Shown here: positions 18,918-24,641 of the stretch, one piece after another
How the letters are laid out: each line of letters begins with the position of its first letter
How positions within the stretch are numbered: the stretch's first letter is position 1
IMG/VR virus record: IMGVR_UViG_3300027908_000001
Span: 87,167-151,166 of that record
DNA: 64,000 bases
Source: a virus
Taxonomy: Duplodnaviria > Heunggongvirae > Uroviricota > Caudoviricetes
Reading direction: 5' to 3' (one strand)
The notes under the pieces: generated by a model
The model's input: the letters and a program-made list of their open reading frames with translations, nothing else
What the model was told of the DNA's origin: nothing
Database searches by the model: none
Program-made: the position numbers and the translations under genes

Positions 18918-18956
18918 AGTATATCATGTATCGCGATTCGAGTCAACAACTATTTT
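18918..18956 (-). promoter_or_regulatory. sigma70 promoter with palindromic operator
   Basis: AAAATAGTTG-TTGACT-N17-TATACT; operator TCGCGA-T-TCGAGT at 18931-18943. Confidence 0.85.
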
Positions 18957-19734
18957 TTGGCACCAAATGGGCGTTGATGAATTCCATGTCGGATTTTGCC
19001 TCACGCTTGGCTCGCTCGAATTTATCTTCATCGGTCGGCGCATTCGGACAGCCGGGCCAGTGGTAGCTTTGGTCCATTGATGCCATGTCAATCGCGTACC
19101 AGCCCCGGTCGGTATGCAGCCAGTCGAGCGACCATGCACCATCGAATGCCAATGATACCTTTTCACTGAGAGCCGTCAGTTCGGCGATTTCCTCGGGCGA
19201 TTCGGTGTTGATTAAATCCAACACTTTCTCCCATCCGGTTCCGGGCTCGACATGGTTCTCGAACGCTTCCAGCGGCCAGTAAGGGTGATGGCACAGCACC
19301 TTGCCGCCCTTGATGAAGTAGCGCCGCTCCTTGGTCACTGGCATATCATGGAACGCCGTGAACGCGCGCTTGGTCGGCAGCAACTCGCGTACCGCCCAGA
19401 CGTTGTACGGCAGACCTAGCAAGCTGGCCATCTCACCGTACTCTACAATCTCCAAGACATGTTTCTCGATGTCGTCCGCGCTGGTGATGTAACAGGAATC
19501 CTTCCAGCTATGCTTCGCCGAAGTTTGTCCAGAGCGCAAGAAGCATGGTAACCCCATTTTGTTCACGGCATATTTCAGGAGCACCAGCAATTCATCAAAT
19601 CCCTTGGGTCGTTCACCTTCAAACATCATGGCGATATGACATGGGGTCGTCGCGATGAAAGTTTTTGGCACCGGCACACCGGTGGCTTGGAGCTTCGGAA
19701 ACCAGTAAGACAGACAGTTCAGGTAATGTTTCAT
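18943..19734 (-). CDS. ATP-grasp enzyme, Cdc123/R2K-like
   Basis: VPVPKT, CFLRSGQTSAKH, AVRELL, KERRYFI, WSLDWL...YAIDM. Confidence 0.7.
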   Translation of the reverse strand: MKHYLNCLSYWFPKLQATGVPVPKTFIATTPCHIAMMFEGERPKGFDELLVLLKYAVNKMGLPCFLRSGQTSAKHSWKDSCYITSADDIEKHVLEIVEYGEMASLLGLPYNVWAVRELLPTKRAFTAFHDMPVTKERRYFIKGGKVLCHHPYWPLEAFENHVEPGTGWEKVLDLINTESPEEIAELTALSEKVSLAFDGAWSLDWLHTDRGWYAIDMASMDQSYHWPGCPNAPTDEDKFERAKREAKSDMEFINAHLVPKNSC

Positions 19735-21050
19735 ACTCCTCCTCTGGGAAAATCCACAACGCTACCGAGTATCGTCTTGCTCTGGTACGTCGGCCCATTC
19801 GAGGTGATGGTGACCGGCGCGCGCAGGTAACCAGAAACCATGTCCACCAGCCCGGCCTTCTTGACCGGCTCGTAGATGGGCGTGCTACCTGCCAGCAAGG
19901 TGCCCATCCGTTCCTGTGCTTCCACGTCCGGCAACTCGGGTGGCGTGAGATGCAGGGGCGTAGCGCCGACCTGATGGCCGACCCCGACCATGCAGTCTTC
20001 CGGTAAATGGTCCATGCAACTCACCGCCAATGCGTCCACGCCGCCGACGCAATCGACTGCGTACCGGAGCAGCGCCAAGTCCAGCCAGCCGCGCCGCATC
20101 GTGCCCTGCCAGTCATTGTGCGGGTTGTATTTGTCCAACGGAAAATCCAGATGCGTCTCGGTCGGGAACGGCCCGGCTCCGTGGCGCGTCATGTAACCGC
20201 GCAACAATCCGAGCTTGGTGACCGGCCGGTTGTAGCCGCCTTCGCGTAATATCTCCTCGGCGTTGGCAAATGTCGTCGTGGCTCCTGTTGTATGGGGATG
20301 AAAACCGGCCCACTGGTCCAAAAGCACGCCCTGTGCGCCCTCGAACACTGGCGGATACGGGCCGACGAAAATGGCCTTTAGCAGTTTCTCACCGTCCACA
20401 ATGTTCAACCGCCGACTGATTTCCACCAGCTTGTTCAGCACGTAACCGAATACCTGCTCGTCATACAACGTCGAGCGTTCCTCGTCCACTTGTTGATTGG
20501 ATGGCAGACTGAGTGCCTCAACTTCCTTGAGCTTGGTATCGCGTAGCCGCACAAGTTTTTCCCGCAGTTTCTTCCAATCATTTAGGTCGGCCATGATGGG
20601 AGACTGAGCCGGGTCATTGAGCCAGTATTCGACCGTTTCCCAAATTCCCATTCCGCAACTTCCATGTTTTGCGCCCCGCCGCGAGATTTCCTTGAGCCGA
20701 TTAGCCGCACGATGGAACGGAGTGGTGAGCAGGGCACGCCGGTCAATGTAGAGCCGCTGGTACGCATCCTTCACCCCTTTCTTGAAAAGATGAACTTCTT
20801 CCAACTCCAGAGTGAGCGGATTAACCATGACGTGACGAGATAAAAAAGTGATGACTCCGGGTATGAATGTCCCGGAGCCGAACTGGCTGAACGTGTGATG
20901 CCTACCATCGGGAAGTACCACATTGTGGGCGGCCTGCCCTCCGCCGTTGTACCGAATTACGGCTGTGCTCGGCAGGACGCGGCACAGTAAATCAACGCAT
21001 GAGCCTTTGCCCTCGTCGCCCCAGCCAAGTCCCGCCGTAATCACAGCCAT
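19731..21050 (-). CDS. divergent adenylosuccinate-synthetase-like protein
   Basis: GWGDEGKG, YNGGGQAAHN, VFEGAQG, RGYMTRHGAGPFPTE, RRGWLD, SNGPT; start MAVI with SD GAGGT. Confidence 0.92.
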   Translation of the reverse strand: MAVITAGLGWGDEGKGSCVDLLCRVLPSTAVIRYNGGGQAAHNVVLPDGRHHTFSQFGSGTFIPGVITFLSRHVMVNPLTLELEEVHLFKKGVKDAYQRLYIDRRALLTTPFHRAANRLKEISRRGAKHGSCGMGIWETVEYWLNDPAQSPIMADLNDWKKLREKLVRLRDTKLKEVEALSLPSNQQVDEERSTLYDEQVFGYVLNKLVEISRRLNIVDGEKLLKAIFVGPYPPVFEGAQGVLLDQWAGFHPHTTGATTTFANAEEILREGGYNRPVTKLGLLRGYMTRHGAGPFPTETHLDFPLDKYNPHNDWQGTMRRGWLDLALLRYAVDCVGGVDALAVSCMDHLPEDCMVGVGHQVGATPLHLTPPELPDVEAQERMGTLLAGSTPIYEPVKKAGLVDMVSGYLRAPVTITSNGPTYQSKTILGSVVDFPRGGV

Positions 21051-21057
21051 AATAACC

Positions 21058-23142: not shown

Positions 23143-23297
23143 TTCTTCCTCGAAAACTTCCGGCGGAACACTCGCACCATGTCGGGAATGATAATTTTAC
23201 AGAGAAACCAGTACCAAAATGTGAGCGCCAATACGACGATGGGAACCACTATCGTAAGAATCAAAAACCAATTAACGATGAGCAGCAACAGATTCAT
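23139..23297 (-). CDS. 52-aa membrane protein
   Basis: Read by hand: MNLLLLIVNWFLILTIVVPIVVLALTFWYWFLC...RRKFSRKK; ATGA overlaps at both ends. Confidence 0.7.
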   Translation of the reverse strand: MNLLLLIVNWFLILTIVVPIVVLALTFWYWFLCKIIIPDMVRVFRRKFSRKK

Positions 23298-24589
23298 TTG
23301 GCGACCACTTCCCCTTCGGACATTTGGATTGCAGCCGGGTCGTTACTCTCGACGACCTCTAAAAAAACCTGTAGGTCAAGCGCCTTGGCCATGTCGAATA
23401 ATGCCTTTTTACTGGCCGTATCGAGAAGCGATGCTTCTTTGATAAAACAGAACCGCAACTTGGGATTTGCCGCCGCCAACAGCGCCACGGCGATGCGCAA
23501 TCGCTTGGCCTGACTCTCCTGCGCAAAAGGTATCCCATTGAACACCAGCTTGCCTTCATGGTCGAGCGACAAACCTTCCACGGGAAACTCGGCATCCTTG
23601 AGCGCCTTCTCGCGTATCGCACGGAGTTCGTCAATCTTCAAGGTCAACCCTTCGCTCTCGGCCTTGGCAGCTTGGAGGTCTTTTGTTACACGTTCGTACT
23701 GGTCGAATGTGGCGATGTCGGTGGCGACTTGTGCCGCGCTGGAAATCTTCTCGTCTAGGTCGTCGAACGTTTGGAAGGCAGGCGCTGCTGTCATTTGTTT
23801 CTGATGATAATCATAGAGGGACTTGGATTTCTCCAGATTCTTCTCGGCAGCTTCCAATTCCGACTTGAGCCGACGCACTTCATTTTCCGCGAAGGTATTG
23901 GCTTCAAAAGCTGCATCCATCGCGTTCTTAATTTGTAGACGCTCGGCATTAGATGACTCTCGCCGCTTCCGCTCGGCAATGACCGCCGTTGTATCTACCG
24001 GCACCGGTCGCTCCGTGGGTATCTGCGTGAACCCGGCGCGTTGACCTTCCAGCTTGGCGACTTCGCGGTTCTTCAATGTGCGCTCATCGAACGTGGTCTT
24101 GACGGCCTGTGCATTCCGGACTAAATCGAGCGGTACCGGGCAAATCTTGAGGAGGTACTTCTGCCGTTCTTCCTCGGTCATTCGGTCGGCGAATTCTTGC
24201 GGGTCCATGAACCCCTTGAACATCGCATTGAGCAACTCGCGCGGCTTACTCAGCGCCGCCGTGGTCTTGTCGCCCACTTTCCCTCGGACGGTCAGGTACT
24301 GGCTAGCTTCCGTCAGGCTGACCTTCACCACAAAATCTTCTGTCTCGGCGATGACGTGGCCTTCCTTCTCACCGGCTCGCAACATCTTCTCGGGCTTCTC
24401 GCCGGTGAACGGCGTCATGACGGATTGGAGGAGGCTGGATTTCCCGCTGCCGTTGGCTCCCGAGACTATCACGAACCCAGAAGGGTCTTGCTCGTCGAAC
24501 CGGAGTTCCACGAGTTTTATCTTCAAGAAATTTGAAACCGATAGCCCAATCAGGTGCTGCGGTCGGTCGGCAGTCGCGGTATCAGTCAT
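23294..24589 (-). CDS. SMC/Rad50-like ABC-type ATPase with coiled coil
   Basis: GANGSGKSS Walker A, central coiled coil, ESQAKRLRIAVAL signature, IKEASLLD Walker B-like. Confidence 0.85.
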   Translation of the reverse strand: MTDTATADRPQHLIGLSVSNFLKIKLVELRFDEQDPSGFVIVSGANGSGKSSLLQSVMTPFTGEKPEKMLRAGEKEGHVIAETEDFVVKVSLTEASQYLTVRGKVGDKTTAALSKPRELLNAMFKGFMDPQEFADRMTEEERQKYLLKICPVPLDLVRNAQAVKTTFDERTLKNREVAKLEGQRAGFTQIPTERPVPVDTTAVIAERKRRESSNAERLQIKNAMDAAFEANTFAENEVRRLKSELEAAEKNLEKSKSLYDYHQKQMTAAPAFQTFDDLDEKISSAAQVATDIATFDQYERVTKDLQAAKAESEGLTLKIDELRAIREKALKDAEFPVEGLSLDHEGKLVFNGIPFAQESQAKRLRIAVALLAAANPKLRFCFIKEASLLDTASKKALFDMAKALDLQVFLEVVESNDPAAIQMSEGEVVAK

Positions 24590-24612
24590 GAGTTCCTTTG
24601 CATGTTGCGGCT

Positions 24613-24641
24613 ACACTATCGCGAATCGCGTATGGCGTCAA
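24613..24641 (-). promoter_or_regulatory. sigma70 promoter with palindromic operator
   Basis: TTGACG-N17-TAGTGT; operator TCGCGA-A-TCGCGT at 24619-24631. Confidence 0.75.

Follow-up and report, generated by a model that had tools for sequence, protein, structure and literature searches.

A three-gene cassette of bacteria and large phages encoding a J-domain pseudokinase, a MIDAS-VWA protein and a PurA-family enzyme with a rebuilt aspartate loop

Phages reportedly possess NAD+ reconstitution pathways, NARP1 and NARP2, said to have been described by Osterman et al. in 2024. Z-genome phages carry PurZ, the succino-2-amino-deoxyadenylate synthase, which is of the short archaeal type (~340 aa) and is a neofunctionalised member of the superfamily of PurA (EC 6.3.4.4; E. 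coli PDB 1ade/1kjx; PF00709). In PurA, R303 contacts both the aspartate and the O2′ of IMP (PMC8342488), and PurZ has a serine in place of PurA Asp13 (bioRxiv 10.1101/2025.10.22.683976). Two kinds of VWA system also bear on the locus described here. The TerY-P triads, as summarised in PMC11090510 from Anantharaman et al. 2012, consist of a TerY-like VWA protein, a PP2C phosphatase and a Ser/Thr kinase. The MoxR-vWA ternary conflict systems (Kaur et al. 2020, PMC7159879), which occur preferentially in filamentous or multicellular bacteria, combine a VWA protein with a chaperone or co-chaperone and an effector. The locus that we compare with these systems lies in a 64,000-nucleotide stretch of phage DNA, hereafter the window.

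The gene row and its flanking sites

Between 18943 and 24589 the minus strand of the window contains six tightly packed open reading frames, all found as claimed in the initial annotation. They are joined by 4-nt ATGA overlaps (23294-23297, 23139-23142 and 19731-19734) or by gaps of no more than 12 nt, that between the kinase-like and VWA genes being 12 nt and that between the VWA and PurA-like genes 7 nt. The start codon of the PurA-like gene is the ATG at 21050 rather than the one far upstream in the open frame. The features along the strand are:

24613..24641, minus strand: promoter-like site at the putative start of the six-gene unit, TTGACG-17-TAGTGT, its -10 overlapped by a GATTCGCGATA motif
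23294..24589, minus strand: SMC/Rad50/RecF-type ABC ATPase, 431 aa (AAA_23, 7e-8; phrog_1499, 1e-58)
23139..23297, minus strand: hydrophobic peptide of 52 aa with a basic C-terminus (from its translation)
22081..23142, minus strand: J-domain/kinase-like protein, cassette gene 1 (phrog_3043, 3e-44; Pkinase, 31.7 bits)
21058..22068, minus strand: stand-alone VWA protein, cassette gene 2 (phrog_2971, 8e-80; fold)
19731..21050, minus strand: PurA-superfamily enzyme, 439 aa, cassette gene 3 (PF00709, 1e-53)
18943..19734, minus strand: R2K.3-type ATP-grasp protein, 263 aa (PF14243 R2K_3, 29.8 bits, cutoff 26.3)
18918..18946, minus strand: TG-extended promoter-like site, TTGACT-17-TATACT, whose spacer contains AATCGCGATA; it marks where the next unit begins

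The profile matches bear out the earlier assignments of an SMC-like ATPase, which has a central coiled coil, of a ligase with the PurA fold, and of an R2K ATP-grasp. The 52-aa peptide has no family match in profile searches.

The row does end at the next promoter-like site, as had been proposed. The stop codon of the ATP-grasp gene falls within the TTGACT (-35) of the site at 18946-18918, which is strong, with 10 of 12 matches in the promoter consensus scan. The claim of an operator-bearing promoter upstream, at 24641-24613, stands in part. The TTGACG element is present, and an operator is plausible since the (G)A(A/T)TCGCGATA motif recurs in this genome at three further TTGAC-proximal sites; the site is nevertheless unlisted by the consensus scan because its -10 sequence, TAGTGT, matches at just 3/6 positions. 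The region is best explained as one early/middle phage transcription unit with three unrelated components: an ABC ATPase of recombination type together with a very small membrane peptide, a conserved three-gene cassette, and a stand-alone R2K ATP-grasp.

The conserved unit

How much of this row travels together? We surveyed 80 viral loci, retrieved via the VWA protein, and 80 bacterial loci. A PurA-like gene lies on the same strand in 76/80 of the viral loci and a kinase-like gene in 69/80, with the order kinase-like, VWA, PurA-like in 58/80, and at least 64 of the 80 bacterial loci have the full trio. The conserved unit is three genes only: the J-domain pseudokinase, the MIDAS-VWA protein and the re-tooled PurA-family enzyme. 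Thus the kinase-VWA-PurA-like triplet mentioned in the initial annotation is real and widespread, and the cassette is common to hundreds of bacterial species and large phages. Matches, from which the 80 bacterial loci are drawn, occur in at least 581 GTDB species, the VWA family comprises 2307 clusters at 50% identity, and ~201 Bxz1-type mycobacteriophages carry the trio (LRRHood gp253-256). The distribution is sporadic, over Actinomycetota, Chloroflexota and Planctomycetota together with phages, and the tree of the PurA-like enzyme requires at least two phage-bacterium switches, or 4-5 by parsimony. Rhizobium and Vibrio phages have the VWA and PurA-like genes without the kinase-like gene, and these two are the minimal conserved pair. 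In 63/80 bacterial loci, and in four viral ones, a Nudix/NrtR-type gene (Nudix+WHD_NrtR) is directly upstream. As first suggested, the cassette appears to be undescribed: our literature search found no published account of the trio or its chemistry.

The other three genes are not part of this unit. The initial annotation had proposed a single six-gene tagging system in which two ligases, one of the PurA fold and one an R2K ATP-grasp, act with the coiled-coil ATPase, and the neighbourhood survey divides it: the three cassette genes co-occur elsewhere, but the ATPase and the membrane peptide accompany them in 0/80 viral and 0/80 bacterial loci, and the ATP-grasp in 1/80 viral and 0/80 bacterial loci. 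In the single case (locus L029) the trio is followed 1.9 kb downstream by an R2K gene. A joint system would fit the tight coupling between two promoter-like sites and the retention of the ATP-grasp catalytic residues (K74, E136, R138, D204 and D216 are invariant). Against it, homologues of the ATP-grasp are missing from 50,697 phage records, ~200 of which carry the trio; the protein has 457 metagenomic homologues, its nearest relatives lie in other phage contigs, and no cassette adjoins these in the three contexts inspected. Relatives of the ATPase belong to recombination modules, those of Arthrobacter phages being annotated as AAA/recombinational repair ATPases and lying between exonuclease and SSB genes. 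The six-gene system is therefore largely refuted by the neighbourhood counts, and we give it next to no credence. The ATPase is most likely a phage recombination/repair enzyme outside the conserved cassette, and the ATP-grasp is an independent accessory gene that is translationally coupled here.

The proteins of the cassette

The first protein has an N-terminal J-domain fused to a Hanks-type kinase fold. Its Pkinase match is just at the gathering cutoff, and the AF2 model (pLDDT 93.3) superimposes on PknB with Z 24.8 and an rmsd of 2.0 over 228 residues; the second Foldseek match is the DnaJ-PKA chimera 4wb7. The catalytic loop reads HGAVLPEN. The kinase fold thus lacks its catalytic Asp, as had been noticed, and this holds throughout the family, where H-G-A or H-G-G stands in place of HRD and no member of 126 sequences has the Asp. 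The HPD motif of the J-domain is kept in 50/59 viral and 60/67 bacterial members, and in one of the family the Pfam DnaJ model matches in full (2e-25). In the window's protein it reads HED, and because of this change its own J-domain may have lost the ability to stimulate Hsp70.

The second protein has no match in a Pfam search, and its VWA identity is confirmed by fold only (AF2 pLDDT 85.9, top matches integrin I-domain/VWA). The MIDAS motif is intact (DVTGS) and invariant across the family, in keeping with the MIDAS adaptor originally proposed. The N-terminus, disordered in the model, reads Met-Gly-x3-Trp/Tyr; Met-Gly opens 140/141 members, and nearly all representatives align with the family profile from residue 1. 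The C-terminal tail is also disordered, ending in ...ERV here and in ...[RK]L in the family consensus. The [RK]L ending is found at 93/119 loci with a kinase-like gene versus 1/16 without, an association that involves few independent events (five independent contrasts, 3 to 0, p ~0.25).

The third protein is distinct from both PurA and PurZ. Its NCBIfam scores are 138 bits for PurA, where the cutoff is 402, and 17.9 for PurZ, where it is 300. The branch separating its family from canonical PurA has an SH-aLRT of 100, and in carrier bacteria it is a paralogue beside a separate purA; in each of five carrier genomes the canonical purA scores 518-560 bits and the paralogue 50-124 bits. Alignment of 133 family sequences onto E. 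coli PurA shows G12, D13, K16, G17, H41, Q224, T239 and D333 to be invariant, with S414-G-P kept in most. Judged from this alignment, the GTP site and the phosphoryl-transfer residues, including the catalytic Asp, His and Gln, are retained in the enzyme, but the aspartate loop of PurA is not. In that loop T300 is replaced by W/F and T301 by Q, R303 is lost and one further Arg becomes Phe. HMMER and MAFFT place the loop in different registers, and the only robust changes are that the TT tip and R303 are gone. Elsewhere R131 becomes M/V, V273 His and N38 Gln; the apparent loss of R143 falls in a stretch rich in indels. The rebuilt pocket (W/F-Q-G, H273) is itself highly conserved. Since all 133 members examined have a rebuilt aspartate loop, the enzyme almost certainly does not merely make adenylosuccinate.

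Possible functions and known systems

What might such a cassette do? We tentatively favour a role in adenine-nucleotide/NAD-ADP-ribose homeostasis, while holding it to be somewhat short of probable. On a nucleotide of hypoxanthine or guanine type, the PurA-like enzyme would phosphorylate the 6-oxo group at the expense of GTP, and the phosphate would then be displaced by an amine other than aspartate, such as ammonia, another small or uncharged amine, or possibly a peptide amino group, to yield a nucleotide that is adenine-type or N6-substituted. As obligate partner of the enzyme, the VWA protein would be a regulatory subunit or a substrate presenter acting through its metal site, and the J-domain pseudokinase would bind the VWA tail and couple the pair to host DnaK/Hsp70. 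We infer the partnership purely from synteny, and the substrate, amine and product are likewise putative. In phages the cassette may keep or rebuild the adenine-nucleotide/NAD-ADP-ribose pool during infection. The link to NAD is suggested because the bacterial operon sits behind the Nudix/NrtR-type gene, in which the REUxEE motif of the Nudix domain is conserved; NrtR is an ADP-ribose-sensing regulator. In a Rhizobium phage, Nampt-like and NMNAT/Nudix genes lie 3 kb upstream of the VWA/PurA-like pair. The present phage has a Prs-like plus Nampt pair 100 kb from the cassette, and no Nudix, NMNAT or Macro genes. Only ~5/80 phage loci have NAD genes less than 7 kb from the cassette.

The same cassette could instead be an immune or counter-immune module triggered by a VWA/pseudokinase sensor. 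Its PurA-like enzyme would then consume GTP, lock up IMP as 6-phosphoryl-IMP or produce a nucleotide that is toxic or serves as a signal, and phages would have it for host shut-off or superinfection exclusion. The sporadic spread and the repeated phage-bacterium switches are consistent with this, as are one Ktedonobacterales locus near reverse transcriptase and UvrD genes and the reporting of TerY-P-like VWA-kinase modules as defence systems (PMC11090510). Yet PADLOC models match neither the VWA nor the PurA-like protein, a Streptomyces cassette sits amid housekeeping genes, and the cassette is fixed in the strictly lytic Bxz1-type phages. Retention of the phosphoryl-transfer residues with loss of the amine pocket would suit such an effector, but conservation of the rebuilt pocket points to a specific second substrate rather than to loss of function, and we regard this reading as unlikely. 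Somewhat less likely still is that the second substrate is a protein, a purine nucleotide being joined through C6 to the invariant N-terminal Gly amine of the VWA protein, or to a VWA-bound target, in place of aspartate. The near-invariant, disordered Met-Gly-x3-aromatic sequence at the true N-terminus argues for this, as do the status of VWA and PurA-like proteins as the minimal pair and the aromatic or neutral residues that replace carboxylate-binding arginines; the N-terminus is equally well explained as a docking element.

An ordinary auxiliary metabolic gene, whether a plain adenylosuccinate synthetase boosting AMP/dATP or a PurZ making 2-aminoadenine DNA, is very improbable and scarcely more credible than the six-gene system. 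The PF00709 match is strong, the catalytic core is intact and the protein matches phrog_1211, the PHROG/RefSeq label '2-aminooxy adenylosuccinate synthetase' implying PurZ. The scores far below both cutoffs and the rebuilt aspartate loop argue otherwise, as does the failure to find a PurB-type lyase in the phage. Against PurZ in particular, the protein is longer (439 aa), retains D13, and has no solved PurZ chain among its PDB sequence matches.

Among the closest known systems is PurA, with which the enzyme shares its fold, the P-loop GD-x-GKG, Asp13/His41/Gln224, the guanine-specific Asp333 and the S-x-G-P motif; because these are shared, GTP-driven activation of a 6-oxopurine is likely. It differs in that GATTGRRRR has become G-x-(W/F)-Q-G-x-F-R, one residue shorter, in the loss of R131, R303 and probably R143 and the change of V273 to His, and in always being a VWA-linked second copy, well below the equivalog cutoff, beside a real purA. 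PurZ is likewise a phage-borne, neofunctionalised member of the superfamily, and shares the database label. However, PurZ has replaced Asp13 and still uses aspartate, whereas the present enzyme keeps Asp13 and has lost the aspartate loop. Like NARP1 and NARP2, the cassette ties phage nucleotide enzymes to NAD/ADP-ribose genes, through the Prs-like and Nampt genes here and the NrtR-type gene in bacteria, although no cassette protein is in the NARP families and NAD genes seldom adjoin the cassette in phages.

The cassette resembles the TerY-P triads, as these are summarised, in placing a stand-alone MIDAS-VWA protein beside a Hanks-type kinase fold in a small mobile cassette of bacteria and phages. 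It differs from that summary in having no PP2C, a kinase fold devoid of the catalytic Asp with a J-domain added, and a PurA-like third gene; PADLOC TerY-P models do not match it. With the MoxR-vWA systems (PMC7159879) it has in common a VWA protein with a chaperone-linked component and an enzymatic 'effector', and the preference for filamentous or multicellular bacteria. In place of the MoxR AAA+ ATPase, which it lacks, the J-domain acting on host Hsp70 would be the chaperone link, and the effector, variable in the MoxR-vWA systems, is fixed in the cassette.

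A conserved trio within the six-gene run

The window covers bases 87167-151166 of the genome of an uncultivated soil phage, 197,395 bp long and bounded by direct terminal repeats. The six genes form a minus-strand run in the part of this genome devoted to DNA replication and recombination. Their neighbours encode a DnaB-like helicase, a replication initiator, a Cas4-like exonuclease, a DNA methyltransferase and an MmcB-like nuclease. No phage record matched the region as a whole by megablast. The genes considered here, with the nuclease, are:

24638-25408, minus strand: MmcB-like PD-(D/E)xK nuclease (phrog_14517/5429), directly upstream of the ATPase gene
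23294-24589, minus strand: SMC-type coiled-coil ATPase
23139-23297, minus strand: transmembrane (TM) peptide
22081-23142, minus strand: kinase-like protein (pseudokinase with a putative J-domain)
21058-22068, minus strand: VWA protein
19731-21050, minus strand: PurA-like protein
18943-19734, minus strand: R2K ATP-grasp protein

The initial annotation took the run from the ATPase to the ATP-grasp as one coupled operon and one system. The six reading frames and their close junctions are indeed there: three of the five junctions are ATGA overlaps, and the others are gaps of 12 and 7 nt. The run ends at a strong sigma-70-like site, TTGACT-17-TATACT, the stop codon of the ATP-grasp gene lying inside its -35 hexamer. 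The operator-bearing promoter said to precede the genes stands in part. The sequence TTGACG-17-TAGTGT is present and carries GATTCGCGATA, but it is weak by consensus and is not listed in a consensus scan. Elsewhere on the minus strand of the genome TTGAC is adjoined by a closely similar motif three more times, which makes four promoter-like sites in all:

window 24613-24641 and 18918-18946, and genome minus strand near 191613 and 185734: (G)A(A/T)TCGCGATA, 10 or 17-18 nt downstream of TTGAC

Because a similar motif recurs beside TTGAC in this way, (G)A(A/T)TCGCGATA is plausibly a shared candidate binding site for a phage regulator.

Do the six genes travel together in other genomes? An alignment of 28 VWA homologues was used as the query for viral and bacterial loci; a viral scan with the single VWA sequence had returned nothing, whereas the alignment-based scan recovered loci. 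The viral sample is 80 fetched IMG/VR loci (153 confirmed), and the bacterial sample 80 loci from GTDB representative genomes (at least 581 confirmed).

Occurrence of each gene at the loci found through the VWA protein (gene; viral loci; bacterial loci)
PurA-like gene; 76/80; at least 73/80
Kinase-like gene (profile search); 69/80; at least 70/80
R2K ATP-grasp; 1/80; 0/80
ATPase, TM peptide, MmcB-like nuclease; 0/80; 0/80

The order kinase, VWA, PurA on one strand is found in 58 of the 80 viral loci, with contig ends accounting for most of the incomplete cases, and all three genes are present together in at least 64 of the 80 bacterial loci. The trio occurs in about 201 Bxz1-type phages. In the mycobacteriophage LRRHood it is gp253, gp254 and gp256, the small hypothetical gp255 separating the VWA and PurA-like genes. 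Rhizobium and Vibrio phages have the VWA-PurA-like pair only. The other genes of the run have contexts of their own. There is no ATP-grasp homologue in 50,697 phage records, and the trio is absent beside the three nearest inspected relatives of the ATP-grasp, which lie on phage-like contigs. Relatives of the ATPase in Arthrobacter phages sit between exonuclease and SSB genes. From the locus counts, the occurrence in LRRHood and other Bxz1-type phages and these separate contexts, the conserved unit is the trio, with VWA and PurA-like genes as its minimal core. The six genes as one system, which the close junctions had suggested, is a reading largely refuted by the gene-neighbourhood survey: the ATP-grasp appears at a single viral locus and the ATPase and TM peptide at none of 160. 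No further associated gene stood out in the bacterial loci on all-against-all clustering of neighbours, an analysis swamped by spurious high-GC reading frames.

The R2K.3 ATP-grasp matches PF14243 at 29.8 bits, above the gathering cutoff of 26.3, and K74, E136-R137-R138, D204 and D216 vary little or not at all among 24 homologues; the ExGD motif of R2K.3 ATP-grasps has been described (PMC4431377). The assignment of the first gene as an SMC-type coiled-coil ATPase, of the SMC/Rad50/RecF-type ABC class, is confirmed by matches to AAA_23, SMC_N and AAA_29 at the N-terminus and to phrog_1499 over the full length. Its Walker A motif lies at the N-terminus and is followed by a long helical insert and a C-terminal ATPase half, and all its scores lie below the equivalog cutoffs of named families. 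With the adjoining MmcB-like nuclease it forms a pair similar to the recombination modules of Arthrobacter phages, in which exonuclease, ATPase and SSB genes stand together.

The three proteins of the cassette

The PurA-like protein matches PF00709 with E 1e-53. Among solved structures its closest relatives are ordinary PurA enzymes, and there is no PurZ chain among its PDB matches. It scores well below the curated PurA equivalog cutoffs (134.9 vs 395.6 bits for TIGR00184; 138.4 vs 402 for NF002223), and reaches 17.9 bits on the PurZ model NF038379 vs a cutoff of 300. Residues were mapped by aligning 133 family members to E. coli PurA; since the gene starts at the ATG at 21050, the alignment residue numbers for the PurA-like protein are one too high. 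Gly12, Asp13, Lys16 and Gly17 of the P-loop are invariant, as are His41, Gln224, Thr239 and the guanine-specific Asp333, and S-x-G-P is kept in most members. The aspartate loop is altered throughout the family: Thr300 is replaced by Trp or Phe and Thr301 by Gln, Arg303 is absent and a further Arg has become Phe. HMMER and MAFFT disagree on the register of this Arg-rich loop; in either register the loop is shorter by one residue and has lost Arg303 and the TT tip. In PurA, Thr300, Thr301, Arg305 and Arg131 reportedly take part in aspartate binding, according to work from the Honzatko and Fromm laboratories. Arg131 is Met or Val across the PurA-like family, and there are also family-wide changes of Val273 to His, Asn38 to Gln and Ser240 to Trp or Arg. 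Arg303 of PurA contacts both aspartate and the 2'-oxygen of IMP, and the equivalent loop of PurZ contacts aspartate (PMC8342488).

In a tree the canonical PurA sequences, from E. coli and five carrier genomes, are split from the PurA-like family with SH-aLRT 100, while phage and bacterial PurA-like members interleave with 4-5 label changes. A separate purA scoring above cutoff is present in each of the five carrier genomes tested. No PurB-type lyase was found in the phage genome. Judged from its sequence, the PurA-like enzyme probably retains the GTP-driven activation chemistry and uses an amine substrate other than aspartate.

PurA-like genes of the cassette are labelled '2-aminooxy adenylosuccinate synthetase' (PurZ), by way of phrog_1211, in RefSeq and Pharokka-annotated records (NC_067270.1, NC_011272.1, OR413349.1). 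The sequence features give no support to this PurZ-type label, and the database annotation of the phage genes is corrected here.

The VWA protein has no Pfam match at E up to 0.1. Its AF2 model (pLDDT 85.9) has the Rossmann-like VWA fold, with integrin I-domains and VWA proteins as the top Foldseek matches (E ~5e-6). The MIDAS site proposed for it is real: in the DxSxS...T...D motif D76, T78, G79 and S80 are invariant, as is G-D-E at 186-188. Both termini are distinctive. The protein begins Met-Gly-x3-(Trp/Tyr) in 140 of 141 members, and in a search of 1.84 billion representatives (2,307 clusters, E up to 1e-3) nearly every match begins at residue 1. Of the 119 loci with a kinase-like gene, 93 encode a VWA protein whose disordered C-terminal tail ends [RK]L, vs 1 of the 16 without (Fisher p 3e-8). 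Because there are only five phylogenetically independent contrasts (3 to 0, p ~0.25), this link between tail and kinase-like gene is suggestive, not established.

Some VWA members (P0327, P0340 and mycobacteriophage records such as MN062707.1 149155-150924) contain an insert of ~250 aa that weakly matches Hint/intein domains; it lies near profile position 178, in the vicinity of the conserved GDE motif. The VWA match falls into two pieces in several Bxz1-type phages.

The kinase-like protein adopts a bilobal Hanks-type kinase fold in its AF2 model (pLDDT 93.3; PknB Z 24.8, rmsd 2.0 over 228 residues), and its Pkinase match of 31.7 bits equals the cutoff. In front of the kinase fold is a helical domain, and Foldseek places the DnaJ-PKA chimera 4wb7 second among the matches, with an alignment of 408 columns. 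We compared 126 members, 59 viral and 67 bacterial. As first noted for the window copy, which has HGA, the fold lacks its catalytic Asp: Ala or Gly takes the place of the HRD Asp in 52 of 59 viral members, and Ala does so in 66 of 67 bacterial ones. The catalytic-loop Asn is mostly His across the family. Nearly all bacterial members retain the DFG Asp (66 of 67), but only 28 of 59 viral ones do. An N-terminal HPD motif is present in ~90% of the family, and one viral member matches Pfam DnaJ at 2e-25. In the window copy, which has no DnaJ Pfam match, the motif at the HPD position is HED, so that with HGA it is doubly degenerate, as had been proposed.

Proposed function and alternatives

Is the cassette tied to NAD? 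A Nudix + WHD_NrtR gene, identified by a directed search, is the immediate upstream neighbour, in the same orientation, in 63 of the 80 bacterial loci and in four viral loci; its catalytic REUxEE motif is conserved. Rodionov et al. are said to have reported in 2008 that NrtR regulators sense ADP-ribose and control NAD genes. In ~5 of 80 viral loci the cassette has NAD genes within 7 kb, and in one Rhizobium phage Nampt-like and NMNAT/Nudix genes are 3 kb from the cassette pair. In the genome of the present phage a search for Hsp70, Nudix, NMNAT and Macro genes found none; one related pair lies outside the window:

genome 3613-5867 (L180:1444-3698), minus strand: overlapping PRPP-synthetase-like (Prs-like; Pribosyltran_N) and Nampt (NAMPT_N + NAPRTase) genes, ~100 kb from the cassette

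This pair resembles the NARP1-type NAD+ reconstitution pair. In phages the cassette's link to NAD is weak.

The four viral loci with an NrtR-type Nudix gene directly upstream of the VWA gene are L036, L050, L051 and L053. The order in L036 and L051 is VWA, PurA-like, kinase-like, and the contigs of L050 and L053 end early. L036 and L051 have the four genes of the bacterial operon in rearranged order.

The analysis establishes the cassette with its distribution, the retained catalytic core and rebuilt amine pocket of the PurA-like enzyme, the pseudokinase character of the kinase-like protein, with a J-domain probable in the family, and the MIDAS site and conserved termini of the VWA protein. 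We suggest that the PurA-like enzyme would aminate a 6-oxopurine nucleotide in a GTP-dependent reaction with an amine other than aspartate. The VWA protein would be its obligate partner, the pseudokinase may form a bridge to Hsp70, and the cassette as a whole could serve in adenine-nucleotide/NAD-ADP-ribose homeostasis.

This amination has several rivals. An ordinary PurA or PurZ would suit the intact catalytic core, but the low scores of the window protein on both models, the altered aspartate loop of the family and the separate purA of carrier genomes set it apart. A six-gene system would suit the close junctions and is opposed by the locus counts. The cassette might instead be a conflict effector, or tag proteins at the N-terminus. 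For the last, a protein-ligase reaction can be drawn that takes in the VWA N-terminus and metal site: the PurA-like enzyme would GTP-activate a 6-oxopurine nucleotide and join its C6 to the alpha-amino group of the invariant N-terminal glycine of the VWA protein, or of a client on its metal site, creating a new nucleotide-protein tag loaded or read by the J-domain pseudokinase and host Hsp70. We regard this as improbable.

The rebuilt amine pocket in an enzyme of the PurA family, conserved with a VWA partner, points to an undescribed enzyme reaction. The VWA family is large: it comprises ~2,300 clusters at 50% identity, and it is known from at least 581 species of bacteria, from no fewer than 153 viral contigs and from ~200 cultured mycobacteriophages. 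The cassette is open to experiment in Bxz1-type phages on Mycobacterium smegmatis and in Streptomyces strains. Were the product adenine-type or N6-modified and tied to ADP-ribose sensing, this would be a new branch of purine/NAD metabolism in phage-host conflict.

Relation to known systems

A search of the literature, with most subscription journals outside it, found no published description of the trio, of a J-domain + pseudokinase + VWA combination, or of a link between NrtR and adenylosuccinate, and PADLOC models gave no match to the VWA or PurA-like protein. The nearest described systems are PurA, PurZ, the TerY-P triads and MoxR-vWA systems, and the cassette fails defining features of each. 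TerY-P triads have a PP2C and a competent Ser/Thr kinase, whereas there is no PP2C among the six window genes and the kinase fold lacks its catalytic Asp family-wide. Ser in place of Asp13 of PurA is the mark of PurZ (bioRxiv 10.1101/2025.10.22.683976), whereas the PurA-like family keeps the Asp in all members. With PurA itself the enzyme shares the fold, the P-loop and Asp13, His41 and Gln224, but it differs in its cutoff score, its aspartate loop, Arg131 and its status as a second copy.
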